From NCBI GenBank assembly GCA_000934665.2, contig JYFJ02003814.1:1-37364 (forward strand): DNA of 37,364 nucleotides, in the 5' to 3' direction. This stretch comes from Catajapyx aquilonaris. Taxonomy: Eukaryota. Below are positions 1 to 32,986 of the stretch, one piece after another. The notes beneath the pieces were generated by a model, which was not told the DNA's origin, made no database searches, and worked only from the letters and a program-made list of their open reading frames with translations. How positions within the stretch are numbered: position 1 is the stretch's first letter; each line of letters opens with the position of its first letter. The position numbers were made by a program, and so were the translations under genes.

Positions 1-718
1 ACACCTAAGTTGCATATTTGCCCAATCGAAGCCATAACCTCCTTTGTAGTCCAAGGAAGTTGCCTTCCCCTTAGTGCACTACAACTGGTGCAATAAGTAT
101 ACCATGTCTGCTTCTGAAGATTGCCGACGAGGATTCGACCAATATTTCCGGGGACACTTCAATGGACGAATATGTGCCTTCCGCGTCACCTTCATCGTCA
201 GAGGATAATAATTCCGTGGGGAGGGGGAGAATACATTAGGTTAGTTAGAATGATCTAGGCCAATCTGCTGGTGTGATTGCTACCAGGTGAATAATAATAT
301 TATAAGTAGGCGTGTAGGCCTACCGTACCTGTGCCAGCCATGCCACGAGTTTGGACATGCTGTAGGCCTACATCACCATTCACCAATGCACCAATCTATG
401 CGCAGCAGACTTTCTCAGCAGCACCAATATATGTATTGAGCATTGAAAGGCCAGTATATACAGGCTTACTGCAAGAGAAGCTGCAGTATATACTGTATAT
501 ATGTTAGGCTCAAACCCCGAAAACGGCCATTGCGCGAAAAAACCGTCCATTCTGCAGAATGATCTGTGCCAAACCATCCATTCTGCAGAATGCTCATTGT
601 CCAACCAGCCATTATGCAGAATGGACGGTTTGACATGGAGCATTGTGCAGAATGGATGTTTTAAACAGTTTTGAAACGGCCAGAGCCCGAAATGCAGAAG
701 AGATGAAGCTGAAGCCAA

Positions 719-2472: not shown

Positions 2473-2494
2473 TTAAAGTGAAGCAACTGAGAAA

Positions 2495-3139
2495 GTGTCT
2501 GAAAAACCAGTGTACTGTGCGGTTTGTGAGAAAGAGTCTTCTGGTGCTCACAAGTGTTTTGTATGTGATCAATATGTTCACATTATCTGTGGAAAACGCA
2601 CAGAAGAAAATGAGGGGTTTGGACATAAAATCACTTGCAACCTGTGTTTAAGGAAAGAGAATATAAAAAGTAAGCGTCAAGGTGCAAGATTCAATCAGAA
2701 AAAACAAGCTGAGCAAATGATTTCTCTGTCCAACTCAAGGCTTTCCCCTGTCGACATAGGGAGAAACGTCGTGGTTAGGGTACCTGAAGTCGATCGAGGA
2801 CGTTTGGCTCCTAGGAATGTGTTAGCGGTTGTTGTCGACGTTAATGAATCTGGGCTCTACCAATTGGGCACGAAAGAAGGCATTTTAGAGAGGCTGTATG
2901 CTCGCAATGAGTTCACACCTGCTGATTCCAATTTTATAGATCTGAACGAAGTTCCTTCCACCAGTTCTGTATCTCTTCGATCGGCTTCAGCTCTAACAGT
3001 AAGTTCAGGTAGTAAGCAGGGATTCATAAGTTGCAGTTGCAAAAAGTACTGCACTGATAAGAAATGTAAATGTCGATCAAGCAATATTAAGTGCAATTCT
3101 AATTAGTGTCATCCGAACAGTGCCTGCAAAAACAAATAG
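2495..3139 (+). pseudogene. C-terminal half of a Ginger2 (KRBA2/SCAND3-like) transposase; integrase core missing
   Basis: Contains a CxxC-CxxC-HxxC-CxxC finger, VRVPEVDRGRLAPRNVLAVV, YQLGTKEGILERLYARNEF and a terminal Cys cluster QGFISCSCKKYCTDKKCKC..CNS[N*]CHPNSACKNK*. There is a premature TAG at 3104-3106. Confidence 0.85.
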
Positions 3140-3345: not shown

Positions 3346-3883
3346 TAAACAGCATCATAAAATGTTAAGTATTTCAACCATTTGCCAAACAACAATCTAC
3401 ATGGCACAGTGAGAAACAGGAAACTGCCACAACGAGTTATGGGCGTCTTCTAAACCAGCCATCCGGACACGAAATTGGCGTCCTGACGTGTAAGTTTCGC
3501 CCGGGAAAGCGTTCTGGCCTTAAAAAGAGCATTTCGGGCTCTGGCCGTTTCATTAAACCGTCCATTCTGCAGAATGAATGGTTTGAGAAAGGAGCATTCT
3601 GCAGAATGGACGGTTTAAAAGTGTTTAAAACATCCATTCTGCAGAATGGATGGTTTGGCACAGATCATTCTGCAGAATGGACGGTTTTTTCGCGCAATGG
3701 CCGTTTTCGGGGTTTGAGCCTAACATATACAATCATGGAATTATTCATGTGCTGCAGTGTGATCATGCGATGATAATAATACGTTTTAATAATGGTTAAA
3801 AATAGGAAATGAGGGGAGTCATCTGCTGTACAAACACCACAGTGATTACCAAACAGTTTTTACCAAAATGTCTAAAGAGGACC

Positions 3884-13370: not shown

Positions 13371-14387
13371 TAAAATTTACGATAATGGTCTATTCGCCCT
13401 TTCTCCTTAATGCTGATGACATACACCCCTTCTCCCCACACATACAGGGGTCAAGGCCATGGCTTTGACATCACCAAAAATTAAATTAAACCTGACACTG
13501 TAGACTAGACCACTTTGTTCGTCCTTCTGCAGATTCCTATTTTAAATATGGCAATTAGTGTGAGTGCTACAAGGCATTTTTGCAGTGTACCAATGATATT
13601 AATGATTTTGAAATTGTAATGACAATATTATTATGTTTATTTTAATTTAAAATGATCCCCTTGCAGTCAAATTTTTTTAACAAAAAGGAGAGAGAGAGGT
13701 AGACAATAGACTTCCAATCTTCCCCAAAAAGAAGCTTTGGACATTTTTCCACTTCTGTTTCAGTGGCCCACCATGGCAATCCGTAAAAAGTGTCAAAAAT
13801 GTCATATTCCAAGGTCAGGCTGAAGGTCAATTTTGGGGGAGGTGATGGAACCTATACAGCATTGGTCCTGTATGTTATTGACTCTAAAAAACCAACTTCT
13901 GAGGCCTTCACTAAGGTTAGACCTGTTTGCACAACCATTTTTTCTTTACTCTTATCACACATTGTGAATTTCCTTACAGCAGGAGCCAAAGTGTTAAGAA
14001 TTTTGATGCCTTCCTTTACATCTTCCTACATTAATATAATTTTGATTTACTGTAATTGTTCTGTGTTATTTGGATTGTACTAACAATCCCTCATACCAAA
14101 TTGCAACAAATGGGAACTAAAAAATTGCAGTGGTCAAGTGGAGAGTACATTCTACGCAGTTTGCTATGAACACATTCTTTCAGTTTTAAGAAATCGAAGC
14201 CATTTTAAGCAGAAAGCAGTGCCAATACTATGGAACAGTTATCAGAGTTTTCCCCAACATAGGATTATTCTTCTGAAAATTCTGAAAATGTTCCATTTAT
14301 CATAAAAAATATTTCTATCATCATGAACAAGCCAAACAGACTGTATTTTTCAACAAATGTCACTGAATATAAAACAGCATAGTTTCT

Positions 14388-17300
14388 CTAATTGCGAGAC
14401 TTCCTTGCTCTTGGTGTCACTGGGCGTTTAAATCCTATTGTGTAAATCAGAGCATTAGTGGAAGGATCCCTGCCACGAAACAGGCGGAAAAGCTCCCTAG
14501 GATGTAGGCCTCCTCCCGACGACAAAAATGTTTTCTTAAACCTGTTGAAAAATAATCATGTAAGTTTTGCATTTGGTTAAGATGTTCTATAGCATACCTT
14601 TTCCCTATGGACTTGATTCCTGCCTCATTGTTAATTCCAACTTCAAGGAAGGCATTGAAAACGTCTGCTGCAACAAGACGCGACCACATATGTGAGTAGT
14701 ATGCAGCTGCCCAGTCTCCAGAGAATATGTCAGTGAAGGTGCATGGGTGTGAGTCCTTAGGCTCCAGCTCGTGGCAGTAATATTCAGGCCACAATCGACG
14801 CACAATCTCAAGCCAAAAATCTTGCCTGGAAGCAATCATGGTCAGAAATCGTTCCAGCCACCATTATCTCAGGGAACATACGTGCTGTAAAGTTCGATGT
14901 CTAAGGCACTCAAGTAAAGCTCTTGACATAGGTCATATCCAATCATGTGCATACGTGACCGGCAGATCCTCTGCACTGTGTCCAGAGCCAGTGGTTCATC
15001 TGTCTTATAATGGTAGCTGAGATCAGCTAAGGCTTGTCCTTCATAAAGCCTGTAAATTATAGAATCAAATATATTTCACAAACACACAGTATGTTACCTT
15101 GATGCCTGGTTGCACCAACAAAATTACCGGTCTGATAGCTCCTAAGGGACCGATAGCACATGTCAAAAGGTCTACCTATCTGTCCATTAGGAGCTATCGG
15201 ACCGGTAATTTTGTTGGTGCAACCAGGCATGAGTCTATTGCTAATATTTTTATGTGGTTAATGCCCCTAGTCTGGAGTCCAATGGTGTAGATGCCTGAAA
15301 GGGCGGGGTAACCTATCCGTGGTGGGACGGAGGATGTATATAAAAGTTTGCCATGATTTTTGCAGTGGTGTGTCATGGAGACCCAAGGGAAGAAGGAGAG
15401 CATAATATAATAATATCATACCCCATTGAAGCCGTTCTGGCTTTTTAGGGGGGAGATTTGTTTTTTTGGCTGGAACTCTTGTAAACTTTATTTCGCTCTT
15501 TGGGACGGGATAGGGATGGAAGGAAGCGGCTGTGGCCTATTAAGGAGAGCATAATATATGGAAGGGTGTTTGTGGAAGCACATTCACTGGATAAAAGTGG
15601 CAAAATGGTAAAATGTGTCATAATCAGGGCCGGTGAAAGACCTGGTGTGGGTGTGGAGCACTCCCCACCCGAATGATTCCGCATGGGGAAATTCCCCACC
15701 CGAAATCGGGTAGTGGTCAAATGAAAAGAAATATCAACAGAAAAAAATTGTCATGCTCATTTTTCGGTTCTGAAACGTCTGAAAAATGATCTTCGAACAA
15801 CGATGTCCCAAAATCGATTGAACGACGTAACAATGTTGCATATTTCTTCCGCAGAGGTCGACAAACTTGATGATTAACAGTTAATGGACGAATTCATATT
15901 GAAAAATTCGAAAGGCAGTTCTGAATTCGCACTTTCTCGCAAATAAATGCAAATCATTTTTGGTAATATTGCTCTTACTCATTTATCCCGTAATAATTGC
16001 ACTTGTTTTGAATTTCGAAAATGAGATCCCCCCCCCCCCCCCTCGGCCCCTCCCCTACTGATTACTCACCACCCGGGCTGAATCTGTTTCACCGGCACGG
16101 GTCATAATGAATAGTTACACGTTTTGATTGGTTTGTTTGTTTGTTACCCCGTGATAGGGCAGGGCCCTCTTAGCAGGGGAAGGGGAGGTTTCCAAGGGAG
16201 GGCGCTCTTAAATAGTTTCTAGTCATTTCAGACCCTCATACCAGATCTTTTCTCTTGTCCCTGGGCAGAGAAGGGAGTGCAAGTCTGCCTGGACATGTCT
16301 GGTGAAAAGAGGAAAAAGACCCGACCAAGTGAAGGTGATGGGGACGGGATTTGAACTCCGGACCTCTGGCTTGGCTGGCCAGTAGCATAGCCACGAGAGT
16401 ACTAGACCACCATGCCCTCCCACATTTTGATTTTATAATCCAATGCAGCACAGAATTAAAAAATGCAGGGCTGCAAAAGGAAACTAAACTAAACTGAAAG
16501 AACCGTATGTTCGAATTGTTTCGTGAATAGAAACGATTCTGGAACCGAAACTAAATGCAGGAACAAAATGCTGGAACGAAAGTCAAGGAAACAAAACTTC
16601 GGGTTCTCGGAACGAAACGATTCTGGAACCGAAACTAAATGCAGGAACAAAATGCTGGAAACGAAAGTCAAGGAAACAAAACTTCGGGTTCTCGGAACGA
16701 AACGATTCTGGAACCGAAACTAAATGCAGGAACAAAATGCTGGAAACGAAAGTCAAGGAAACAAAACTTCGGGTTCTCGGAACGAAACGATTCTCGGGAA
16801 TCGAAAGTGATTTAGGTAACCGAACCGATTTGGTTTCGTTTCCTGTGACATGAGCTAAGAATCCTATAAGAATCCTAAGAATCGTTTAGTTTCCGTAACA
16901 GAACGTGGTCCGGATCATTTAGTTTCGTTTCCGAACCGAAATGGTATAGCTAACATGTTTGGTTTCGTTTCCGTAACGAAACAGAACGTGGTCCGGCTAA
17001 TATAGTTTCGTTTCCGAACCGAAATGGTATAGCTAACATGTTTGGTTTCGTTTCCGTCGGAACGAAACTTTTCTTTCGTTTAGTTTAGTATTGCAGCCCT
17101 GAAAAAATGTGGAAAAGGGGTTGAGGTAGTGGGAGGCTGACTTACTGTACAGTACCGCTAATAAAGAATGAGACTACTCTATGGACGAAATGTTTATCCT
17201 GACTGTCCAGCAGTATTCCCACTCTTATTTCATGGCGATCCTATGTACAACCTTTCCTCGACCTCTGGCTACCCGTATGACCCTCCCTTCAAACGAATTT

Positions 17301-20300
17301 TTCACGAAAATCTTTATTACCAAATTGTTCAACCAGGTACAATGCTTACATAAATTTGAGTTGAATTTTCCCTCTAAAATTTTCCTTCTTTGCATTGTTT
17401 TTTTCTTTTCTTTTTTTTCTGTATTTTCATTCCCATTACCCGGCCTTCCCCAAGACCTTTAAAAACAGGCTGACAACCCAGGGGTTGGGAACAGGATAAA
17501 CATATCATCCATGGAGTTGTCTAATTCTTTGAGTGGTACTGTACATTGGGCCAAGTATAGCCTTCTTTATGGACTTCACGGTCTGGACTTGTTTTGGTTT
17601 GTAATACTCCAATAGTGTCCATATTTGTGGAAATACCAAATTTTTAAATACTGCAGGACAACTCACCAATGCACTAGAAGATCAGGACAAATACCCAAGG
17701 CATCCCACTCAATGTTGGTTCGCCCAGATACTTCATTATATTCTGTAGTTGACAGCACATGCTGCAGGACCTGGCCAAACTTCAATAACATGGACTTAGT
17801 ATTGTACACTCATTCTTGTCAAGACACACTCACCTTGCGAAACAAAACCTCCACTTGCTTTAAGGTCAACAGCGATGGTATCCCACACTGTGGTGGTGCC
17901 AGGTTCAAAATCATGCTCGCAAGGGGTTCCATCTTGGTTCGGCTGCTTCGGCTTCGGCACCCAATCACCCAACCTGAGTTTTCCCCAGAATAAAGCTTCT
18001 CACCAGGCCTGCAAGTCAAGAGTTGTGTATCATCACAGTTCTCAGCAGCCTGCATTAAGGGGGGAATAAAGATAATTTGGGAGTAAAGTTCTTGCTAACT
18101 AACAACAGCAGAACCGATTTTTTTTTTTGTGGAAGTGTAACTGACCTCTCACACATGTGTGAGGTACTTTTCCCATATTCTTAATATAGTATTTTTAAAA
18201 GTCATTTGCATACGGGAGTAATTTACGCTGTCATAAAATTTTAAGTGATGTCGTAACAAGCACCCAAAAATGCGGAAAAATGAGATGCTCCGGACCCGTG
18301 AAGCTGATTTTTATATTTAGCTATAACCTTTTGGCAAATAATAATTTTGTCAAAATTTGACTGATTTGAGAACTACTAGAAGTTGGGGGAACCCTAATTA
18401 TCACGGTTTTTATTGTGCCTAGAGGGAATGGTCAACCGCAAACGTGACCTTTCTTTTGCGTAGCGAGGGTGGGATCCACTGTCTCCTCTTTCGGCCAGAG
18501 TTGGAACTCGAAGTAGTCCCGATTATCCTTATCCCCCCCTTAACCAACACATGCAGACCCAAGAACATGCATAGCAGGATGTACCAGCACCTGTGCTTGT
18601 GGTCTTGTTGTAATCAATAACCAGACCCATAAGGGCCCACACTGAAAACACATTTGGAAGTGTGGATATGACAATTTCCTGAATAAAGGCCCCTACACAT
18701 GGTAGTGAAACATGCTTACGGGTTTGTCAGAGGGGGAGGATCCAATCATGCATGGTACACATGGACTTTTACTGGAAAAGGGCATGTGACGCAAAAGGAG
18801 AAGATAGCGTAAGATCAACCGCATGTGTTCGTAGAGCCACCTTTCCGGGACCTGCCTCCATCTGCTCACCCCCATGGGTCCTGCTGCAATGACAGCTAGA
18901 AACTGGAAGGAGAGGCCACATTCTCCCCCTTTCAGAGTTGAGAGTGTGACTGGGCCAGAAGGGGCCATCTTGAATTGTGACGTCACATGCGCTTCATGGG
19001 GGAAAAGTAGAGCTTGTCCAAATTCAGTGCGTGAAGAGCTTAAATCCCGCAGCAGTGAATTATGTCGATATGAACAGTGCACTTTTGCATCTAGCCCCGC
19101 CCGTGCGTGAATTCTCTTGCTTGTTTCACTACTGCGTGTAGGGGCCTTAAAAGAGGCAACCATGGCCAGATCTTGGGGGTCTGTCAGGCAGGCTACTCCT
19201 GTTGCCCAGCTAAGAGTGGAAGTAACACGAGAGATATGCATTGTATTGATCAACTGTGAGCAATAAAAGCACATTTTGGTATATTGAGTGTGTCCAGCAG
19301 GGGCTAAGGTGAGAGGCCTTGCCCAGGGGAATCCAAGCCTGGGGCCAAGATTCTTGTTCATGTTTGCTTTCTCTTCCCCCTTCATTCCTCCCAGATGATA
19401 AATCAGCTCACAAGGGTTCAATCTAGACCACTATTCAAGTAGTCATGACAAGGTCCAGTATTTACTTTTCCTACCTAGGGCAGTGAAGGTCCAGATGGCC
19501 TGGGTCATGAAATGGATCCCATATGGTACGATATTCCTACAAAGGACTGCCCTGGCCAGTTCAAGCAGGGTTCATTTCTTGGAAATGAAAACATGAGCAG
19601 CAATGGTAGAAGGGCCTATTGAGACAGGACATATTGAATCATTTTTGCCCTTTATGATGTCCTGTATGTCGTGGCAATCCAGACAAAATCCAGACCACAG
19701 TCTGCCAGTTGAATAGCCCTGATCTAGACTTTTTTTCTCATGTCCTCTGAGTAGCCAAGTTAAGATTCGATTTTTTATTTTATTTTTGAAAAAACTCAAG
19801 CGTCTTTTCCTGCGTTGAACACGGCAAACCGCGTCCCGAAATTCAAAAAAATTGGCGCATCGGGAGCGGAGGCCTGGCAATGACCTTCATCGGTTCCCTC
19901 TCCTCTCCCCACCCACCTGCTGGCATGAGCGCCATCAGCATCAGGTGCTGCTCCCGCGCGGACGCGGAGGCACTACGCCGGTCCTGCTGGCCACAGAGCG
20001 TCTGTGTCACACTAACGTATTTTTTGAATCGCATTATCGCTGTTACATTACCCTACTTTTAACTTTAAACACGTTTTTCTCAGTTTTCCGGATTTGGACA
20101 CTGTCGACATCGCCCAGGCCACAAAAATTTAGCTACGGACTTCCCACTTTACCAGATTTATCCTCAAACATGGCGGTATCATTCGGCCTAAAAGAATTAG
20201 CCTGCTCGAACTACTTCTATTTTTACTTTATTTAAATGTTTTCTCAAAACTGCTTAATTTTGTAGTTATCTTTCTGAAATAGTCAAAAAAACACTAAAAC

Positions 20301-23300
20301 GATTTCAAAAATGATAATTCTAGGTCAAATGAAAACTACATGCTCAAGGAAGCCTGAGGTCCAATCTGACGGTTGTAGGTTGACCCCAGCGTCCTAAATC
20401 GTGTCAACAGTGGCGTGACATCACGCGGCCCTGGAGGCCCATCGACACACAAAAGTGATTCGATTATAGGCACTATCAGGTCTTTGACTCAGTGAGGGAG
20501 GCATGGTGGTCTAGTGGTTACGCCACTGGCCAGCAAGCGGGAGGCCGGGGTTCAAATTTCGTCCCCGTCACCTCTGCTTGGCTGGGTCTTTTTCCGCTTT
20601 TCACCCGACATGCCGGTGCAGAATTGCACTCCCTACTCTGCCCAGGGCCAGGAGAAAAGGCCTGGTGTATTTCACAAAGTCAGAAATGACCAAAAATACA
20701 GTGCCCTCCCTTGGGAACCTCCCCTTCCCCCCAAAGATCACGGGGTATTACAAAAAAAAAAAAAAAAAAAANTAAAAAAAAAAAAAAAAAAAAAAAAGTC
20801 TGACTTATGTACAGTACCCTGCATTAATGGCTATGCACAGACATCGCCACCTGGCGGGATTGAGTGGAACTAGGCGTCGGTGGGCTGTGTCAAAAATACT
20901 TTGATAATCAAGACGGCTCTAGACGGCTCAAGATATCGTGTTGGATTAACAGCCATTCGCGTGGTCCGTGTAATAACTGGTTCACAACCTCAATACATTG
21001 ATAGGAATCGCAATGGCCGTATAATTCATCCCACAGATATATCTGTGATCCGCTGTGATCCATCTTTGTAGCACGAGTTTGAATCCACCGCGATATCTTG
21101 AGCTGTCCAAGTATTTTGGACGCAGCCCACCGACGCCTAATTCCGCTCGTTCTTGGACAGGTGGCGATGTCTGTGCATAGCCATTAACCCATTCGGTCCC
21201 AGATCGGCCCGAACCACACAGTTTTTGGCTTACGGGTACTCCGAAGATACGGACAAGATATTTTGCAAATAATAACAGATCTATACTTACGAGATCTGGG
21301 AAAACCCTATGAATGTGTCTGGAACCATTTTACTCGTCTAGAAGTCCCTAAATTAATTTCCAAAAAAGGGCTATAATAACTCGAAATTTGACTACTGCCG
21401 CCCAACTTTTAGGCTGATTTGATTATGAAATGCGTGAAAATATGGGGAATAACAACCATGAGAACCATGCCAGACGAATTTGCTGAAATCGCCGTACTTT
21501 GCGAGAAATAAATTAATATTTATTTGCGGCTTTCTAGCACTTAGGAAAACTCCTAAATGAGTATGAGACGAATTTTCTGAAATCGTCGTACTTCATGAGA
21601 AACAAATAAATTTGGGAGTTTTCCGAAGCTTTCCGAAGTGCCAGAAAGCCGCAAATAAGCATTAGTAATTTATTTCTCGCAAAGGACGACGATTTCAGCA
21701 AATTCCTCTGGCATGGTTCTCAAGGTTGTTATTCCGCATATTTTCACGCATTTCATAATCAAATCAGCCTAAAAGTTGGGCGGCAGTAGTCAAATTTCGA
21801 GTTATTATAGCCCTTTTTTGGAAATTAATTTAGGGACTTCTAGACGAGTAAAATGGTTCCAGACACATTCATAGGGTTTTCCCAGATCTCGTAAGTATAG
21901 CTGTTATTATTTGCAAAATATCTTGTCCGTATCTTCAGAGTACGCGTAAGCCAAAAACTGTGTGGTTCGGGCCGATCTGGGGCCGAAGGGGTTAATGCAG
22001 GGTACTGTACATTCATGAAAATGAAGTCCCAACTTCTTGTCTCGAATGGTTTTTTTTTTTGCGATTTTTTACAAAACCCTTGATTTTGACTGCAGTGCTC
22101 CCTTCACTTCAGTGAACATACAGTACTTCTGCATATAGTTTTCTTCTTGAATAATTCCCCATAAGATAGTGTCAAAGCATATAGCATTAGCTGGTTATAA
22201 TGAAACATAAAAGTGGTTCCTCCAAAATTCAGCCTAAGCAGGTCAACATGATTATTATGTAAGTACCTAATTATATGTTGTAATGTAACTTGGCAGTACT
22301 CTTCTCTCAAAAGGCTGGCACAAGATGATATTCTATCCTGATTATCTTGTGGATTTCACCATATTTCTTTACCTTTGATATGGATCCAAGTAGAAATTTC
22401 CTAAGACACCACTGTCATCAGAAATTCTGTACATCTTCACATCGGGATGCCAAGTGTCAACTTCACCAGGGACCTCATCTATGACGAGGTCAAAGAGATC
22501 TTCACACAGGGTAAACAGGCCCAATAATACCCGTGGTAGTGGTAGATGCTCACGTAGTTCATTCTCATCATAGCTGTAAGATACATGGAAAGTCACTAGG
22601 TATGTAGATAGTTCATGCATCACAGAGTAAAATAAAATTCACAAAGTGCATCCTGATTTCTAAAGAAATTTTAAAAATTACCATTTGAAACACAAACATA
22701 AATACAGAAATGTGCAACATTAAAGTTCAGTTAATTGATGAAAAATTATATGCCAGTATCATTACAAACCTGTACAGAAATTGGTGCTGCTTACGACGCC
22801 AGTAAGGGATGTCACACTGCTCCATAGACCCTTGAAAACCACGTGCCTTGGAAAATTCAAGTAGAGCTGCTAGTTCATCCTTCTGAGCTGGCTTGGCTGT
22901 CAAATCAGTGTCACACAAACTGTATTGTTTCTGATAGTACACAAAGCACATGTGACATGGCAAAAGGCCTACTGGAATTTTTACTCGTAGCCCTTAGATG
23001 ACAACTTATTTTGTCTGGAAGTGATGGTTCTAGGGCATATAACACACTTGAAGGTGCTCTCCCCTCATGTGCACGAATTACACATACCAGAGTAATCAAT
23101 CAGAGAAAGCACGGGCAGTGCTGTGCCAGTTACGGATATGCATGCATGAATACCTGATGTTGACTTTCACTGTTCTTGCTTATTGTGAAATTATTTTGGA
23201 GATATTCTTGAGTACAATGTTCACATTTTTACATTACTGTGTCAGAGTTACGGCGACCTGACCATAAAGGCCCCAAGCCATTACTAAGAAAACACCTTAG

Positions 23301-26300
23301 AACATAAAAAGTGCTACAAAGAATCATGTTTGCATATGCAAAGTAGAAAAAACATTTTTAGCGTTGCAATTCTTATTCATCAACATCCTTTCAAATATTG
23401 TGAAAGTAATGATTTTTAAAGTTTTTATGTGGTTCAAGTCTTTGACACCCTGCTATGTCAATTCCATCAACGTGTGGCCTTTGCTATTGCTTCCAAAAAT
23501 TTGCAAAATTTGGGTCTAAAGGACATGGGCAAATCTTATGGGAAAAGTTGCGCAGGTTGTATTTGGCTGAAACTTGGTCAGTTGACCTTGACCTAAGGGT
23601 CAATTGTTCTGAAGGCCGAAGAAAATCTACCGTGCCGTTTGGCCACTAGAGGCACCCAAAGTCTGACTTTCAGATGGTTCCTATCAGGCTCATTTTCACA
23701 TATGTTATAGAGTTTCATAAGCTGAGTCGAATGAGCCATGGTGCGATTTTATGTGACAAACCATTTGGCCACTAGAGGTGCAATCGAGTTCAACAACGGA
23801 TCTTGTACTGGGATTGTAAGTGTGACATAACAATAACTGCCAAATGGTTTGTCACAGAAAATCGCCACATGGCTCATTAGATTCAGCTCATGAAACTCTA
23901 CAACATATGTGAAAATGACCCCGACAGGAACCACCTGAAAGTCTGACTTTGAGCGCCTCTACCGGCTAAACTGCACAGTAGATTTTCTTTGGTCTTCAGA
24001 ACAATAATTGACCCTTAGGTCTGATCAATCAATGGACCAAGTTTCAGCCAAATACAACCAGCGCAACTTTTCCCATAAGATTTGCCCCATGTCCTTTGGC
24101 TCAATTTCTGTACTGGCAGACCAGTAATTAATAATGGATGCCTCATTATAGGCCCCTTTGGGACTTTTAGGGGATCATCTTTTGATCAAGTCTTTAATCA
24201 TTGCCTGTGCTGTGATGGATTTTGATTTGTGGGAAAAAACAGGCGAGCCCCGAGAAAACCCATGCGAACATGGAGAAAACCCATTCAAAAACTTGATCCA
24301 CGTAAGGGCAATTCCACGTGAAGTTGAACACGTTTTGCAAAAAAAAATTGCCAGTCGGTAAGTGTGAGATATGTTTCACATATGAAACATGTATTACAGC
24401 ATGCATTTACGTTGCCATGTATATGTAGTAGGTGGGCACCTCTAAATGTGATCAAAGTACAATTAGTGCCTGCAGTTAGGCAACCACACATCAGCAGACC
24501 AAATCCTTGTGGGAATGGTCATTACCTGAGCAGGACTAAAAGATATCTCACTCACTGACGGGCAAATTTTTCCGTGGAAAACATGGTCAACTTCACGTGG
24601 AATTGCCTGTAAGTATCTTCTGTCTGACCCAGGAATCAAATTCAGGGCCTCAGAGGTGGAAGGCTGTGGCACTAGCCACTACACCACCGTGCCGTCCCAC
24701 AGACTAACCAGTACTTAATCCACACTAATCAACTTGATTGGTTGCTACCATTATACATCAAGGCCATATCACAATTATTGCAAGTTAACAATGAGTATGA
24801 GCATAGTTCTTACCTACAACTCGAAGGGTGTCAATCATGGTTCGAACATTGTCTACATTTTCAGCCATTTTTGTCTCCATTGACAATTCAACATAGTTTT
24901 TGTAGCCAAGTAGTTTTGCCTGGTCATTCCTGAAGCATAAATATTCTTACATTACAACCTTTATATTAACAACAGCAGCATACCTCTGACTCCGGATCTC
25001 TTCGATTTGAACACTATTATTTAGTTCCTTGTCTTGATAGACTGATGCCCGAAGTCTATGCGCATGCCATGCATTCCATCGCAGTTCTTTCACAGGGCAG
25101 TTTTCCATAAAGGAGGAGTAGATGTGTGGTTGGAAGGTTACTGCCCAAGGACCTTTGTCTGGATTCATCCTACAAAAGAATTAATTTATGAAAGGCACAT
25201 TACACAGGATACCAGCAAGGATACAAGTATGTATTGCCAGGTACAGTGCTGGACATTAATGGTAGAGTAGGCTATTGAGAGCGACATATTCCGAGGCGGC
25301 AGAAAAGCATATCGAAGTGATGAAGTATGGGCCATGCTAGTAAGAAATGGTAGGCCATGGGTGACATCACCGGCTGGGCACAATAGTGAATGATTGAATC
25401 TACCTGTGATGTCACCCAGGGCCTACCATTTCTTACTCGCACGACTCCTTCTTCATCACTTTGATGTGCTCTTTTGCCACCTCAGAAAATGTCACTGTCA
25501 GTACTCTACCATTAATGTCCAACACTGTACCAACACAATCACTACAGAAGCAACTAGACATTTTAAAAGATAAATTTTGTTTTCAATATAGTACACGATA
25601 CCTAAAGGCCAGTTTACAAAGATGTGGAACCTTGCCAAAAGGAGGAGTGCAACAACAGACCATTCGACTGCAGAAAAACTGACTGACTAATTTCAAACAC
25701 AGATGATATTTAAAAGGTGTAATATGCAATAATGAGTCACCCCACATGAGAACAGTTTTGAGAAGGGCTTTGAAGGTCATACATGTGAAATTAATTAAGT
25801 GTTCTTTTCAGTCATTTACGGCATAAGTATGCAGATTTCACCACCTTGATTTTAACTGAATGAAGTACAGTGCTGGACACATTAGCCGTCCCTGAATGTT
25901 TTTTTTCCGTCGGCGACGGCGCTGCGTAACCTGGCAACCCCGGCCGGCGGGCCAATTCAAACACCAGCACATGGAGAGTGCTTATAGTATCCTTTCCATT
26001 GTTGCCATTGTTTACAAATCGAGTGAGTGACGCGGACGACCCAGCGACGGGTCTCTTCTGCCTGCTTAGGCACCTTCTTAAGCCCGCTCCACACTGGCTG
26101 AGTTTCTCCGATGGGGATATTTCCGGACGAGAAATTAAGCCAGTGTGGAGCGTGTCTCCGATCCAGTTTGTGATCTCACCAGGGAGCATAATTATACTAC
26201 ATAAGAGGCGAAAACTTATGTCGGCGCCTTTGATGTTCGCGTCTCTCTGTTTGGGGCCGTTGCCAAGGCTAGCGGCCATTTTGAAGTGTGGGGAACGCCA

Positions 26301-27823
26301 ATGAGGTATAAATAGGGTACAGGCAAAAATAGGGTCCGCCATCTTTGATGGTTTTGGCGGCCACGGCCACCCTGGCCGCCTGGTCGACTTCACTCCCGCC
26401 CTATGTTAAGGCATGCAGGCGCTACTCTGCCATGTATCAAGCTTCAGGGCTCCCCCTCCCACGACTGCCTGGTATGTGTAATTGTCTGCGTGAATGTTCC
26501 TGCCATCTCCTGTGTACCTCCCTCCTCCTCCATTACTCACCCACATTAATTAACCGAATGCAATTATTAGAATTAATATTATTGAAGGATTCTACTGTCA
26601 TCGTGGCCATTTCAATAAGAGTAAATTGCAAAGGATCCAAACCAGGATAATTTTTTCCTCCATCTGACACTATTTTTTGTCATTGTCACCTTGTTGTACT
26701 TGCTGATTGCCTTTAAACTGATTACTGTGGAAAATAATGTGTAACTTCTTTCCCCACTCCCTCTTGGACTAGGAATTTGGGAAGTACATCACCCTGTGGG
26801 TTTTAGATCTGATATAAAATTATTAATGATAAAAAAACTCCTTACCTATCCAAGGACATCTCCGTTAGCAAGTCTCGAGGAAAATCACGAACAACATTCA
26901 GGTCACTAATAATATGTTTGAACCGTCCACTTGCCACCTGAAAATAAATTCAGTTTTGCATTGTAAACCAATTACACATCACGCAACGTGCAAATTTTAC
27001 ATACCTGCACTTTCTTCTCATAAGTCTTCCTTTCTGTATTCAGTTTCTTCATAACCACTTCAAAATGGTCAGCATCTTGTTTATTCAGCTCAAGTCCATT
27101 TAAACGGCCTTCGAGTAGAAACTTATGAACAAGACGTGCCTTTGCCTCATCTTCTTTTACCTCTGGACTATCCTTTATATCCTACAAATATACCAGCAAG
27201 TCAAATGTGTCAATACTTAACTTCCACTATCATGTGGTACCTGGCATGCGTCATAGATGAGTCGGCTGCGGAAGCAGCGCACCCTTGCCCGTCGTGCCCT
27301 ATCACTGATGTTTATAAATGTTGTGTTTGGCATCACATTTGCATTGGCAGCATAAAGAGTCTTTACTATCCCCCATGCACTTTCCAAGGGAGCCCCATAG
27401 GACTCAATCTCTTCTAACACAGATGTGAAGGTCTTCTGTAAATCTTCTGAAAGGCAAAAGAAAATACCCATTCACTAATTCTGGCCAACTGAAATTATTG
27501 CTACATACCTTTTTCCAGCATGTGCTCCACGCCCCATACCCCAGATTCAAAATCCAGGGACAACTTCCCAAGTCCATTGACGCACTTGGACCGGTCCAAG
27601 CTTGAGAATCGAGGGTAACCCTCTGTGTTCAGCAGGGGGTTTGTTTCAGCAGTGTCTGTAGGTATCTCTGGGACCCTGAGAGGTCGAAGATGTCATTCAG
27701 ATTATAATGATTAAAAATTATTGTGTGTCAGTTCCAGTCTTGAAATGCATGAATTCTTATGAATACACGCTAAAACAAAAACACAACGTGATTGTAAACA
27801 GGATAATGGGAGGTCATATGAGA

Positions 27824-27882
<59 letters not shown>

Positions 27883-30257
27883 TAATAATAATAACAATCC
27901 CGGTAGTGCTTGACCTCATCGGAGGTATATAGCACGGACCTATTTTATATCCTGTACATTTATTGGAACCTTTTTACGTAACGTCTGGGCCCATGGGCAG
28001 AATGACAGGAGGGAATGCGCAAAGTGCAGTGCAATGTCGTTGGTGTGGTCATTTTGTAAACTCCCCCGGGTGGATTAGTCTATGGAAATTCCACCCGAGA
28101 CGAAGCCAGAGATGGTCCAACTCTGCACGAGATGAAGGGGGGAACCCCGGGATGGGATCAAACCCGGGACCTTAACATTCGTGGACGCATACGTTACCAC
28201 AGTGCCACTCCGCCTCCCTTTGTTATAAGAGAAATATTCCTCTATCTCAAAAAAATGCTTTACCATCATGTAATCTATGCACCACTTGGAAATTTGATAT
28301 CTAGCAATGTCAGGGAGGTGCGGTGCCATGATGGCTTGCTGAGTGAAAGGTCCCAGGTTCTATCCCCACCTGGGAGTTCCCTTGCACCTGTGTCAGGAGG
28401 GTCTCTGACCCGCGCCATGGAGGTGTCTGGCAACCTAACCTCCTGGGGAACAGCACATGACCCCTTTACAGACATTGCACTTTCACCCATGTTCCCTCCC
28501 AAAAAATCCCCTATCCTTACCCCATGTTCTTGATTCCCTGCACCGGAGAGTGAAGAAAACTATGTACATTAGAAAACTGATGGTGGTGTGCCACCCCCTT
28601 ATAAGGGCTTATAGCTCTATCATGGGGTAAAAGAAATAAAAATAAAAATTTAAAAAATATATCTAGCTATGTCTGAATTTTTGAAATGTTTTAGCAGATG
28701 AGTCGTTAGCTACCTAAGGTTTACTGTGGAGGTCTTATTTGTCACATCCTGTTATGGCCAGAACTTTTACTACTATAGTACAGGTGAACATGGGGAACAG
28801 AAACTGTTTAGGTATACCACAGAGCTAAAAGGCACCTACATGAATCATGCTGCGAGTACATCTCTGGCCATAACTTGGTCATTTGAATATTATCAAAATA
28901 GCAGCCAATTAAGGAACTCTCATCTTTATTATAAAAAAGAACCCTGCTGTGGATTGGGGGAGGCTGAGAATTCTTTGGAATAATGTTGAATCTTCCCACT
29001 TCTGTGATATTGCAAACTTCATACAGGACAGGAGTTATGGATTATTGAGGCTATATGAACACAAAATAGCTTTATGGCAACCTATACTTTCTCTTAACTG
29101 CAAGAAAGCAAGGTGGGCAACATTTCAATGAGTGTTGCAAATATTTATTTCTGATCAATCCTATGGCTATTGAAAATTTGCTGGAACTCATGGCCCCATA
29201 GACTTACATTTGGTTTGAATTTCAATCTCCTGCAAATCAATGAGGAATATTTACCCTTGTAGAAGTTTACCTACTTTTCTAGGGCTAACCAGATTTATTT
29301 GTAGATCCCCAGCCCTGAATTATCAAGCTGTAATACTCATTCATTGTTTAACATACAGAGGGTGACTGCCTAGCAGAACTACATCATCAGCATAAATCAG
29401 TGTAAGTCTGGAGGGTTTAGTCCACGATTCACTCCAGGAACCCTAGATTGTGACAGCTTTTAGTTTGCATAGCTGTATATATTACAAAGAGCAACAGAAA
29501 CAGACCTTCACCTTGGAGACTACTAACTTATTATCCTTGTCATTGGTGGACAGCATTATTCCTAAATGTAAATAACTATTTTCAAGAGCTATTTTGCATC
29601 AATATTTTGCGTTGTCAAATTAACGCCAAGGAGAAGCAAGATGCTTTAATGCAGATCAAATGAGCTGACAAGTCCAACAAAAGGACCATATTACTACCCC
29701 TTTCCTGCAGCACCGCATTTTAGGATCAGAATAATAATATGCGGCAAAAACAACTGCGATTGGATCTAAAAGCCGACTGATCCTCCAGAATCACGCTCTT
29801 CGTCGTAAAATATGTCTTGCTAGATGGATGTAAAAAGCTTCAACATAGTGTTGACTGAGGAGAATCCAAATACCTCTGTTGTATGAAAAAACCAGGAGAA
29901 AGCCTGGAGATGGAAAGATAGAAATCCCGTAGCTTTGTTTTTCCAAAACCGAGTTGTTTGCACTGACATGGAATATCGATTCCCATGTAACTGGTTTTAA
30001 TATTGGCATGACTTAACACCCCATACATAATGACCAACTTTATAGTTATAAAACTGGAACTAACCACAAATACAACTAGCATGTTGCCTATACTTAAGCC
30101 AACAAAAATATCAGTTCTGCCCTTTAGAAATTTGCAGAGTATAATGGTGTGTTACAGGCCCAACTAGATTAACGTACAAGACAATATATCCATGCCGACG
30201 TGGAGTGAAAAGCAGGCCTTTGGCTGCCCTCGCACTTCTCACAGCCAGTCGCGACAT
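14388..30257 (-). CDS. M3-family oligopeptidase A-like protein (thimet/neurolysin/OpdA fold), 14 coding exons, 729 aa, predicted catalytically inactive and mitochondrially targeted
   Basis: complement(join(14388..14541,14598..14825,14882..15049,17667..17779,17834..18008,22373..22573,22770..22896,24814..24929,24984..25169,26846..26937,27005..27181,27241..27446,27509..27675,30178..30257)). All introns are GT-AG with consistent phases and the total is 2190 nt with no internal stop. The protein starts MSRLAVRSARAAKGLLFTPRRHGYIVLVPEIP and contains M3 hallmarks GPWAVTFQP, AKLLGYKNYVELSMETKMA, WHPDV..Y, FYLDPYQRPGEK, IEWDA, AAAYYSHMWS and FRGRDPS. Confidence 0.93.
15103..15229. mobile_element. Hairpin MITE with 3-bp TSD (PIF/Harbinger-like)
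   Basis: TGA|TGCCTGGTTGCACCAACAAAATTACCGGTC ... GACCGGTAATTTTGTTGGTGCAACCAGGCA|TGA. Confidence 0.8.
15410..15541 (-). mobile_element. 5'-truncated retroposon (SINE 3' part)
   Basis: 17-bp direct repeat AAGGAGAGCATAATATA at 15393-15409 and 15542-15558. The minus strand has GGCCACAGCCGCTTCCTTCC, a terminal stem-loop and a short TTA tail. Confidence 0.7.
15625..16100. mobile_element. hAT-type MITE
   Basis: CAGGGCCGGTGAAA ... TTTCACCGGCACGG, with a perfect 8-bp TSD GTCATAAT. Confidence 0.8.
16130..16420 (-). mobile_element. tRNA-derived SINE, family B
   Basis: A box TGGTCTAGT..GG, B box GAGTTCAAATCC, (CAAA)n tail, TSD CACGTTTTGATT/CACATTTTGATT. Homologous to 20493-20797. Confidence 0.85.
16466..17101. 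mobile_element. hAT-type MITE with internal minisatellite
   Basis: CAGGGCTGCAA ... TTGCAGCCCTG, with 8-bp TSD AAAAAATG. It holds three near-identical 84-85-bp units from 16531 and a second two-unit repeat from ~16897. Confidence 0.88.
20493..20797 (+). mobile_element. tRNA-derived SINE, family B, with poly(A) tail
   Basis: GGTGGTCTAGTGG A box, GGTTCAAAT B box, body colinear with 16130-16420, then a long A tract. Confidence 0.85.
20812..22007. mobile_element. Tc1/mariner-type MITE whose right TIR is split by a piggyBac insertion
   Basis: TA|CAGTACCCTGCATTAATGGCTATGCACAGACATCGCCACCTG ... CAGGTGGCGATGTCTGTGCATAGCCATTAA[insert]TTAATGCAGGGTACTG|TA. Confidence 0.85.
21188..21991. mobile_element. 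piggyBac-type fold-back MITE (804 bp, ~370-bp near-identical arms)
   Basis: TTAA|CCC ... GGG|TTAA; the arms are reverse-complementary with few mismatches. Confidence 0.9.
23516..24099. mobile_element. ~580-bp palindromic MITE
   Basis: AAAGGACATGGGCAAATCTTATGGGAAAAGTTGCGC ... GCGCAACTTTTCCCATAAGATTTGCCCCATGTCCTTT. The arms pair almost to the centre. Confidence 0.8.
24194..24698 (-). mobile_element. Old tRNA-derived SINE interrupted by a MITE
   Basis: Head GGCACGGTGGTGTAGTGGCTAGTG...TTTGATTCC (24620-24698) and body GGGTTTTCTCGGGCTCGCCTGTTTTTTCCCACA (~24230-24265). Confidence 0.55.
24305..24609. mobile_element. MITE with ~65-bp TIRs
   Basis: GGCAATTCCACGTGAAGTTGA ... TCAACTTCACGTGGAATTGCC, flanked by TA/TAA. 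Confidence 0.75.
25244..25527. mobile_element. Tc1/mariner-type hairpin MITE
   Basis: TA|CAGTGCTGGACATTAATGGTAGAGTA ... TACTCTACCATTAATGTCCAACACTG|TA. Confidence 0.8.
27828..28221 (-). mobile_element. tRNA-derived SINE, family A, with (TTA)n tail
   Basis: Colinear with 11296-11673. The 15-bp TSD has 2 mismatches (GTCATATGAGAAATA 27813-27827 / GTTATAAGAGAAATA 28222-28236). Confidence 0.88.
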
Positions 30258-30329
30258 TTCTCCAGAAGTGCTCCAGAACGTGCCGGGAATCTCTGGTGCC
30301 GGGTTCCACAGTCAGATGCTGGCTGCGTT

Positions 30330-31020: not shown

Positions 31021-31235
31021 GTAAAAGGTTAGACTGAGAGATATGTGATACCAACATGGGAGGGCACTTACAAAAGAACAAGGGAGAAGAGGCTAGGCAC
31101 TGGCCACATATGGCCCATTCTCATACAGGCATGAACCTGTTTAAGGCACAATTTGGGATGTCTAGTTCAATGAATGAAGAGGAGATGGTGTTGTGCAATT
31201 CTTGCACTAATGTGATATAAGATTCTAGTTTAATC

Positions 31236-32270
31236 CAGGGTTGTGAACCGAACCGAACCCTTGCTCTGTGAACCCTATAACAGCCGAGCCACTCCGGAGC
31301 AGTAGAGCCGGGTCCGGAGCGAGTGTCGGAGCTTGGTTCGGGTTCGAGCCGATTCAAGGGAAGAGTGGAGCCAAGGTCGGAGCGGGTCCGGAGTTTGGTT
31401 GGGAGCTTGCCAGCTTGCTCCGGAGTTTGGTTCGGGCCAGCGCCTCCGGAGCTGAACCCGGTTCCGGAGGGAGGTTCGGAGCGGTTCAGAGCTTGGTTAG
31501 GTCCAACATACCAACGCAATGGGGGGAAAGGCAGAAAAACCGCTGGATTTACTCCAGCATATGCGTCATGTTTTCATGGTGACAGAATGATAGTTCCAAA
31601 CCACAAATGTCACAATTTTATGTCATACACATTTTTTGGATACGTCACAATAATATGTCATAAGCATTATTTTGTTGTATGTCACAATAATATGTCATAT
31701 GCATTTTTTGTATGTTACAATATGATATTGTAACATACAAAATATTCGTATGACATAAAAATCTGGCATACAACAAATGCATATGACATGAAAATGTGGC
31801 ATCCAAAAATTGGGTATGACATGTTGTGGCATGCAAAAAATGTGTATTATGACATATTGTAACATACAAAAATGCGTATGTCATAAAAATGTGACATTTG
31901 CGGTACACCCTGTATCGCGGGTGCTTGGAAATGTCATTCTGCCACCATGAAAACATGATGCATAGGTTTTTCTGCCTTTCCCCCCTTTGAGTTGGTATGT
32001 TGGACCTAACCAAGCTCTGAACCGCTCCGAACCTCCCTCCGGAACCGGGTTCAGCTCTGGAGCCGTTGGCCCAAACCAAACTCCGGAGCAAGCTGGCAAG
32101 CTCCCAACCAAACTCCAGACCTGCTCCGACCTTGGCTCCACTCTCCCCCCTAACCGGCTCGAACCTGAACCAATCTCCGACGCTCGCTCCAGACCCGCCT
32201 CTACTGCTCCGGAGTGGCTCTGCTGTTATCGGGTTCACGGAGCAAGGGTTCAGTTCGGTTCACAACCCTG
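31236..32270. mobile_element. hAT-type fold-back element with ~350-bp inverted arms and an AT-rich central minisatellite
   Basis: CAGGGTTGTGAACCGAAC ... GTTCGGTTCACAACCCTG, with a perfect 8-bp TSD GTTTAATC. Confidence 0.9.
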
Positions 32271-32986
32271 GTTTAATCACAAGTGCAGGTGTACCTTCCT
32301 CATTTGTCCGTCATTGACTTTGTGTACAAGAGTACGAGAGTAGGCCAGCAGTGATAAGGCTATTTTGGGGACTGGTTTTATTAGATTTATGCACGCAGTG
32401 TCACCTAGACCTAGAGGAATTATACACCATGCCAAGATGATGGAAACCACTAGCTCACACTTTACCTATTTTTGCATTGCATTCACCTCACCCACCCAGG
32501 CTGCACACCATGCCATGTGTAAACTGATTGAGGGAATGATTGTCGACAGACAAGTTCAAGTTGCCTAGAACTGCAATTAAATGCGGTTTTCTTTGGCAGC
32601 ATTTTATATTACCAGTTTGTTTTGTAAATTCCTCATTTTTTTTCTCACATCAGATATGTTTTGCATAAGTTGGGGACAGTGAATACTCCTCACATGATGG
32701 CTGATGAGCCCAGGGATGAGCCTTCCAGTCTATTGTTAACAGATCATATTATTTTTGATGTCCCCTAAAAGTAACTGCCTATAAATAAGCAACTTAGTGC
32801 CAAAACTTTACTAACCACAAAGGAAATTTTTTATTGGAACACTCTTTATTATTCAGCTAATTGTTCTAGTATTACTGGAAGTGTAGCTCTTTGCTGGTGC
32901 AATATTCTCATGCCAGAAAAGCAGAAAACTAAAAGTGCCCCACAGTATGTTCCTTACTAATAGGTCAAGTGACAGTCAGTGTATTC

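Follow-up and report, generated by a model that had tools for sequence, protein, structure and literature searches.

What becomes of a metallopeptidase gene once every key residue of its zinc site has been replaced? The question is raised by a 37,364-nt stretch of Catajapyx aquilonaris DNA (GenBank assembly GCA_000934665.2, contig JYFJ02003814.1, positions 1 to 37,364 of the forward strand), referred to here as the window, whose minus strand carries a homologue of the family M3 oligopeptidases. An original prediction held that this gene is intact, that its protein has lost both HExxH and the third zinc ligand, and that it encodes a mitochondrial pseudopeptidase kept for a non-catalytic role. 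Our results make it very probable that the gene is the orthologue of Drosophila CG11771 and encodes a nuclear-encoded, probably mitochondrial M3 protein of the OOP/OpdA branch, in which the two-domain fold has been kept and zinc binding and water activation have been lost.

Gene model and the former zinc site

The gene model was obtained by tblastn searches with four database homologues, followed by enumeration of frame-compatible GT/AG pairs and assembly, and exons 1 and 2 were placed by reading the 5' region of the locus. The gene extends on the minus strand from 30257 to 14388 in 14 exons; its coding sequence of 2190 nt (729 codons plus the stop) is a multiple of three and free of internal stops, and all 13 introns are of the GT..AG type. 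Its exons and relevant motifs are listed below.

30178..30257, minus strand: exon 1, with the start codon and the presequence-like N-terminus (MSRLAVRSARAAKGLLFTPRRHGYIV-); GYIVLVPE runs into exon 2
30257-30178, 27675-27509, 27446-27241, 27181-27005 and 26937-26846, minus strand: exons 1 to 5 of the gene model
25169-24984, 24929-24814, 22896-22770 and 22573-22373, minus strand: exons 6 to 9 of the gene model
18008-17834, 17779-17667, 15049-14882, 14825-14598 and 14541-14388, minus strand: exons 10 to 14 of the gene model
17834..18008, minus strand: exon 10, whose final two codons (17839-17834, CGC AAG) encode Arg-Lys at the His and Glu of HExxH
17780..17833, minus strand: intron of 54 nt (GTGAGT...GAAG) splitting the former HExxH motif
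17667..17779, minus strand: exon 11, whose codons at 17779-17771 encode Phe-Gly-Gln, with Gln at the second zinc His
17710-17693, minus strand: EWDALG (in NIEWDALG), with Gly (17695-17693, codon 538) at the third-ligand position
14681..14719, minus strand: GDWAAAYYSHMWS, remnant of the Tyr-rich loop, which is GGYAAGYYSYKWA in intact-site relatives
14460..14480, minus strand: FRGRDPS, a conserved C-terminal motif that is kept (FRLFRGRDPS in the gene model)

On the minus strand, the junction of exons 10 and 11 reads GTG GAG GTT TTG TTT CGC AAG/gtgagt...ttattgaag/TTT GGC CAG GTC CTG CAG CAT GTG CTG TCA, and the protein across 17834/17779 is VEVLFRK/FGQVLQHVLS, followed by ...NIEWDALGICPDLLVHW/gtgagt at the end of the exon. 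Thus, R-K-F-G-Q stands where HExxH was sought, and the motif is absent from the window protein; the replacement that had been proposed at this splice is borne out by the letters, by the gene model and by MAFFT alignments with intact-site homologues, in which RKFGQ aligns to HEFGH and the Gly of EWDALG to the last Glu of EWDAVE. This last Glu corresponds to the third zinc ligand of thimet oligopeptidase and Dcp; the position is Glu in 17 of 17 intact-site rows and Gly in the window protein, and the gene model and the alignments with intact-site relatives agree on this second proposed change as well. An alignment of P0068, a close homologue, with the solved chain 4KA7 of Arabidopsis OOP gives an identical register. 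The four key residues have therefore all been replaced (His, Glu, His and Glu by Arg, Lys, Gln and Gly), and because of this the window protein is predicted to be unable to bind a catalytic zinc or to activate water. In addition, two Tyr that are invariant in the Tyr-rich loop of intact-site relatives are Trp and His here (window positions 641 and 648), and both positions belong to 27 columns that are lost in panarthropods. Reference residues G703, R704 and P706 of the FRGRDPS motif are nearly invariant among 85 sequences. The preservation of the 729-codon frame, the splice sites and the distal motifs (GDWAAAYYSHMWS and FRGRDPS), also part of the original prediction, holds in the 14-exon model.

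Could an exon restoring HExxH have been overlooked? All seven exon open reading frames submitted to Pfam matched Peptidase_M3 (PF01432), with E-values from 2.4e-15 to 0.052; as the exons were scanned one by one, only two of the seven singly passed the gathering score of 27 bits (57.3 and 55.4 bits). Their coordinates on the 457-position profile (75-126, 121-194, 201-246, 246-281, 286-340, 342-424 and 420-455) are contiguous, passing from 201-246 to 246-281 at 17834/17779, which leaves no gap for a missing exon around the active site. The alternative exon that would have overturned the prediction was sought by a six-frame scan of the whole window, which returned three HExxH strings in total and no HExxH-coding stretch on the minus strand within 14388-30257. 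Nor is the motif-splitting intron unusual in this gene for its 54 nt, since five other introns are also of 54-67 nt, making six in this range.

Spliced copies of the gene were found among the contigs of one public run (X1), placed on 14300-30300. Of the 13 introns they show 7, and the pieces listed are identical in letters to the window:

14542-14597, 14826-14881, 15050-17666, 17780-17833, 22574-22769, 22897-24813 and 24930-24983: X1 joints that equal modelled introns

The exon junction inside the motif, as predicted, is among them, the contig joint at 17779/17834 skipping the 54 nt. The joint table also connects 17834 to 17779 and 17666 to 15048, and an 815-nt contig lies on 18010-17834, 15048-14881, 14824-14596 and 14539-14418 with zero differing letters. 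X1 contains 0.21 of the sampled words of 14388-18008, approximately the exon share of that stretch; no run recorded as RNA was found to contain it. These contigs can show the presence of a transcript form and not the absence of rarer isoforms, the parts of the gene that X1 leaves uncovered count neither way, and X1 is not an independent proof of the letters because it may derive from the same sample as the assembly.

Family branch, fold and localisation

To which branch of family M3 does this protein belong? The question was addressed with two orthologues. Among solved sequences, phmmer matched P0068 to Arabidopsis OOP/TOP2 with E 5e-99 and to thimet oligopeptidase/neurolysin with E 1.5e-50. 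An AlphaFold2 model of the fly orthologue P0004 (KTFGS...Q, four residues lost), built on an 85-row alignment, gave a predicted local distance difference test score (pLDDT) of 92.7 and a predicted template modelling score (pTM) of 0.91, with only the first ~35 residues poorly ordered. With this model, the best Foldseek matches were Arabidopsis OOP (4KA8/4KA7) and TOP2 (4PUT), with E ~1e-39 and template modelling (TM) scores of 0.79-0.84, and neurolysin and thimet oligopeptidase came behind (E ~1e-33; 3e-33). Since both searches place neurolysin and thimet oligopeptidase behind OOP/TOP2, we assign the family to the plant OOP / bacterial OpdA type and not to the neurolysin type. Superposed on OOP (TM 0.80/0.84), the model is a two-domain clamshell, and the window protein is 42-48% identical to the insect orthologues; the M3 fold is thus predicted to outlast the loss of the metal site.

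The window protein shares with Arabidopsis OOP (4KA7/4KA8), TOP2 (4PUT) and bacterial oligopeptidase A the domain layout over ~690 residues, the NIEWDA stretch, the AAxYYS loop and FRGR[DE]PS. Unlike it, OOP is an active zinc peptidase with HEFGH and Glu, none of these residues being found in the window protein. Neurolysin (NLN/MEP) and THOP1 are likewise members of family M3 with a clamshell fold (TM 0.75-0.87), and neurolysin is mitochondrial; however, they are clearly more distant than OOP, both by phmmer (~1e-50 versus 1e-99) and by Foldseek (~1e-33 versus 1e-39). In the parts of the fly study consulted, NLN/MEP is given as the best human orthologue of CG11771 (PMC13523200). Against this pairing, sequence comparison points to the intact-site 'oligopeptidase A' proteins of bichir and reedfish as the vertebrate counterparts, the OOP/OpdA type having been found among vertebrates only in these fishes in the searches made. 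The reedfish (P0246), bichir (P0290) and crinoid (P0354) proteins are of the OOP/OpdA type, are named 'oligopeptidase A' and carry a complete HEFGH...E site, the reedfish one having a basic N-terminus; bichir fishes and the crinoid were the sole deuterostome members to turn up in those searches.

By sequence and tree position, the window gene is the orthologue of Drosophila CG11771, nested in the insect part of its clade. Both proteins have approximately the same length, a basic N-terminus leading to GYIVLVPE, and all four residues lost; they differ in that the window protein reads RKFGQ...G and flies read KTFG[ST]...Q, with ~42% identity to brachyceran orthologues (P0035). CG11771 has been described as an 'M3 non-peptidase homolog' without the essential catalytic residues (PMC13523200, Cell Biosci 2026, as far as the portions available state). 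A further mitochondrial metallopeptidase homologue whose zinc site is gone and which is still functional is MPP-alpha (PMPCA / Mppa), according to the sections seen of two papers (PMC13523200, PMC11266112); unlike the present protein, it belongs to the unrelated family M16 (HxxEH) and is the substrate-binding partner of an active paralogue.

Regarding localisation, residues 1-27 of the window protein include six Arg/Lys and no Asp/Glu, in line with the presequence-like N-terminus that had been predicted, and residues 3-13 form an amphipathic stretch with a hydrophobic moment of 0.73, the protein-wide 95th percentile being 0.63. The N-terminus (...RRHGYIVLVPEIP) is basic and acid-free and is followed by the clade-specific GYIVLVPE; a comparable basic N-terminus and GYIVLVPE start occur in most of the 78 full-length homologues listed. 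Overexpressed Drosophila CG11771 localised unevenly within mitochondria in muscle, in the part of the study seen (PMC13523200). Together with the N-terminus, this favours the mitochondrial assignment of the original prediction.

Loss of the site among relatives

Is the loss peculiar to this species? The best-conserved exon found its closest match at 62% identity, over part of the exon; as it matched distant relatives only, the lineage of the window is poorly sampled. The nearest proteins, from decapods and insects, are 48% identical to the window protein over ~700 residues. An insect set was formed by a Lucilia protein and 120 further insect sequences from its search, one of them bearing the name 'CG11771, partial [Drosophila busckii]'. 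None of these 121 homologues has HExxH, or Glu at its second position, and all 121 have Lys or Arg at motif position 1 or 2; more than 30 different five-residue strings occupy the former HExxH. An exhaustive phmmer search with the best-conserved exon returned 388 hits, 41 of them of 400-1300 residues, of which 30 were without HExxH and 11 had it. Dead-site proteins came from a millipede, a tardigrade, a sea spider, two mites, an ostracod, a barnacle, a dragonfly, bugs, bees and wasps, and intact-site proteins among these matches from reedfish/bichir and Diplonema. A search seeded with an annelid protein brought in decapods, krill, amphipods, a collembolan and orthopterans, all of which lack the Glu, as well as molluscs, annelids and a nemertean, many of them with HEFGH and Gln, His or another residue as third ligand. 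Many molluscs and annelids are missing parts of the site, in several different patterns, and the complete site was found by this search in a priapulid and a crinoid. As a separate observation, the gastropod Babylonia areolata has two paralogues (P0306 and P0313), one with HEFGH..Q and the other with REFGH..Q, which suggests that the gene was duplicated and that the site then eroded in one of the copies.

In the alignment, the catalytic Glu is kept in none of the 42 panarthropod rows and replaced by Lys/Arg in 30 of them; Lys/Arg is found at motif position 1 or 2 in 38 rows. The first His is retained in 1 row, the second in 13 and the third-ligand Glu in 18, and all four residues are replaced in 20, the window among them. 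None of the panarthropod homologues examined can act as a zinc peptidase in the usual way. The names that NCBI gives to many of these homologues, 'oligopeptidase A' or 'probable cytosolic oligopeptidase A', and the pairing with human neurolysin suggest an active enzyme; the dead site and the OOP/OpdA type correct the reading of these genes in proteome and protease inventories. Hence, the suggestion of a lineage-wide feature hidden under an 'oligopeptidase A' label holds as to the lineage (0 of 121 insects and 0 of 42 panarthropods keep the Glu); the feature is not hidden, because CG11771 is already in print as a non-peptidase homologue in what was seen of PMC13523200.

A tree of 88 rows was computed with IQ-TREE under LG+G4 with a short search, support being given by the Shimodaira-Hasegawa-like approximate likelihood-ratio test (SH-aLRT) only, and no NLN or THOP1 sequence was among its rows. 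The window falls in a 24-row insect clade (SH-aLRT 96) as sister to P0178 (98), within a 36-row pancrustacean clade (98). A 41-row panarthropod clade with the window, Drosophila and Lucilia has a support of 86, below the mark of 95. The 72-row protostome clade has a support of 100 and a stem of 0.43; it is sister to the bichirs (grouping 95), with the crinoid just outside, and in both of these neighbours the sites are intact. Within it, the intact-site priapulid is the first branch, followed by a lophotrochozoan group and the 41-row panarthropod group. A single loss of HExxH for the protostomes, as read from a 50-row tree in which 39 dead rows formed one clade, was overturned by wider sampling: the priapulid, several molluscs, a nemertean and an annelid inside the formerly all-dead clade retain HExxH. 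On the 88-row tree, the changes needed are 1 for the complete site, 5 for HExxH and 7 for Glu. Ecdysozoa is an accepted clade; with the species tree as the frame, the complete site must then have disappeared at least twice independently, given that the priapulid has it intact. The single-loss reading is kept, as a tentative interpretation of these alignments, for Glu in panarthropods only. Two placements contradict the accepted species tree, namely the sea spider, an arthropod, grouped with lophotrochozoans, and the priapulid outside all other protostomes; these may be long-branch effects, and neither is relied on.

Lys is found at the Glu position in the tardigrade, the millipede, crustaceans and many insects, and Aedes has HKFGH...E; because of this distribution, a change of Glu to Lys in the panarthropod stem, followed by decay of the zinc ligands lineage by lineage, appears most likely. 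Brachyceran flies have reached KTFGS/KTFGT...SQ. In the clade of the window, the loss of the catalytic site would then predate the arthropod radiation.

The pattern of change beyond the site was also compared. Of 117 columns conserved at 90% or more in the 17 intact-site rows, at least 80% of panarthropods retain 67, and fewer than 50% retain another 27, the latter setting the panarthropod proteins apart from their OOP-type intact-site relatives. A further 22 columns have become conserved in panarthropods; most of these are conserved in lophotrochozoans too and not in intact-site relatives. The priapulid, which keeps HEFGH...E, has 16 of these in common, compared to 2 for the crinoid and 1 for the bichir. 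Since the priapulid shares 16 of the 22 gained columns and retains 20 of the 27 lost residues, the clade-specific features seem older than the loss of catalysis. Across the 42 panarthropod rows, 77 of 707 columns are conserved at 90% or more. That a dead enzyme has been kept by selection, as proposed, is supported by the intact frame, the spliced contigs and the conservation across panarthropods.

These observations could be arranged as a series in which OOP-type proteins of protostomes would have acquired new conserved features on the long protostome stem while the site was whole, catalysis would then have become dispensable, and it would have been lost independently, by Glu to Lys in the panarthropod stem and piecemeal in molluscs and annelids; we offer this as a speculation with somewhat less than even chances. 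If true, a non-catalytic job, perhaps the capture of presequence peptides for the PreP pathway, would be older than the loss of activity, and a comparison of the priapulid, snail and insect proteins would be a way to study it. The window protein, with four residues gone, would represent the end state of such an enzyme-to-pseudoenzyme series, which runs from intact (priapulid) to fully eroded (the window gene and flies) and is the most interesting by-product of the analysis.

Possible roles of the protein, and other features of the window

What could a protein of this kind do? It would be imported into mitochondria through a cleavable presequence and would need neither zinc nor hydrolysis, its role requiring the fold and not the chemistry. 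The closed peptide channel might still bind short peptides in an unfolded state, for instance cleaved presequences, and leave them uncut, and the protein might thereby serve mitochondrial proteostasis as a binder, a holdase or an adaptor for active peptidases. The ancestral OOP activity would have been the clearance of targeting peptides (after PMC9291397, seen in part); according to the same portion, which cites Kmiec 2013, OOP is an organellar enzyme that breaks down targeting peptides 8-23 residues long. In the accessible text of the fly study, CG11771 knock-outs are viable and male-sterile, with loss of cristae and late mitochondrial aggregates in photoreceptors, and loss of CG11771 promotes HTT72Q aggregation, overexpression lowering HTT96Q aggregates (PMC13523200). 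We read these phenotypes as a fit to a real non-catalytic function. A specific non-catalytic role (peptide binding, scaffold or chaperone), as proposed in the original prediction, is what we infer; non-hydrolytic peptide binding in the retained channel for mitochondrial proteostasis is put forward tentatively as the mode of action, and could well prove wrong. It is worth testing because the fly knock-out, as far as that text goes, shows that sperm maturation and mitochondrial integrity are affected when the dead protein is missing.

Several points weigh against the interpretation of a retained mitochondrial pseudoenzyme that binds peptides. The lost columns are concentrated near the active site (window positions 505-546 and 635-648), and for this reason the channel is to be regarded as remodelled and peptide binding is not to be assumed. 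The path from the protostome node is 0.37 to the priapulid, 0.98 to the window and 1.23 on average to 35 named panarthropods, and relaxed constraint fits these long panarthropod branches as well as a new function does. Moreover, the fold was modelled on the fly orthologue and not on the window protein, the probable mitochondrial location of the latter is read from its N-terminal composition, the spliced X1 contigs are presumed to be RNA from a run whose library kind is unrecorded, and the portions seen of PMC13523200 leave undecided whether CG11771 acts as a protease.

Among other explanations, the protein might serve a different mitochondrial peptidase or complex as a regulatory or structural subunit, acting by protein-protein contact in the manner of MPP-alpha/MPP-beta and not by holding free peptides; this appears less likely, and is the alternative with most in its favour: pseudo-metallopeptidases of mitochondria are known to act so, MPP-alpha being the example in the parts seen of PMC13523200 and PMC11266112; the 22 gained columns, with their sharing by priapulid (16), crinoid (2) and bichir (1), could mark a new interface; and the fly knock-out of CG3107, the PITRM1 orthologue, resembles that of CG11771 in its male sterility, spermatids being elongated and motile sperm absent in both (PMC13523200, in part). 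Yet for the M3 protein no such partner or active paralogue is known, the entry names of M3 enzymes found in the PDB searches include no partner, and the same portion of the fly study reports similar phenotypes with unrelated proteases such as Immp2. It is far less probable that the protein is still an enzyme, with catalytic residues relocated within the fold or with a different chemistry. Such migration has been described for some so-called pseudoenzymes (PMC10211241, portion consulted), and zinc might still bind in relatives that keep three of the four residues, such as Aedes (HKFGH...E); against this, the window protein has the four residues and the two invariant Tyr of the Tyr-rich loop replaced, the more than 30 strings at these positions vary freely, unlike a catalytic site, and the gained columns showed no conspicuous new cluster of invariant His, Glu or Asp.

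Least probable by far is a decaying pseudogene, an assembly or annotation artefact, or a functional isoform in which another exon restores HExxH. The two active-site exons do have the weakest Pfam scores (E 0.012 and 1.4e-4), and the stretch is present in only one public run, of a kind not on record; this has to be set against 729 codons over 14 exons free of stops and frameshifts, with canonical splice sites and exact spliced contigs, against a loss of Glu common to all panarthropod homologues examined, whose frames are all open, and against a locus without any HExxH-coding stretch and with contiguous Pfam coordinates at the junction. We therefore retain the catalytically dead CG11771 orthologue as the preferred reading.

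As to the literature, searches for M3 non-peptidase or oligopeptidase A pseudoenzymes returned the 2026 fly paper alone on this protein (supplements excluded). The words thimet, neurolysin, oligopeptidase, M03 and 'family M3' are absent from the text of a 2024 review of pseudo-metallopeptidases (PMC11266112), and 'arthropod' and 'HExxH' from that of a 2022 study of OOP evolution (PMC9291397). No description of the clade-wide loss pattern or of the OOP-type assignment was found in the literature searched, a partial library without supplements. The window gene itself adds one species to a known, little-studied group, and leaves its picture unchanged.

Additional features were observed elsewhere in the window. 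At 254-436, on the plus strand, a short open frame (...CHEFGHAVGLHH...) gives a weak match to Pfam Matrixin (M10), with E 0.0047 and 17.3 bits (cut-off 24), and may represent a single exon of a metzincin gene, unrelated to the M3 gene, at the window edge. An open reading frame of 209 residues at 2477-3103 (plus strand) matches the SCAND3-like zinc finger PF23663 (E 6.6e-17) and is flanked by inverted arms of 95 nt with 100% complementarity (498-592 and 3635-3729); a second inverted pair is found at 717-842 and 2349-2474 (98%), and the segment 498-3729 looks like a recent DNA-transposon insertion. In the 2.6-kb intron downstream of the active-site exon, ~85-nt tandem units occur four times (two of them identical) at 16491-17047, followed by two 83-nt units. 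Foldback-type inverted repeats at 21182-21997, 23504-24110, 25267-25509 and 31230-32276, with arms of 82-319 nt that are 81-97% complementary, are located in three introns of the M3 gene and just upstream of it, and look like miniature inverted-repeat transposable elements or foldback elements. X1 contigs pile up at 15368-15901, 20174-20707 and 27650-28717, with a summed word depth of ~90-600 compared to ~5-8 on the exons; these regions are probably abundant interspersed repeats inside introns.

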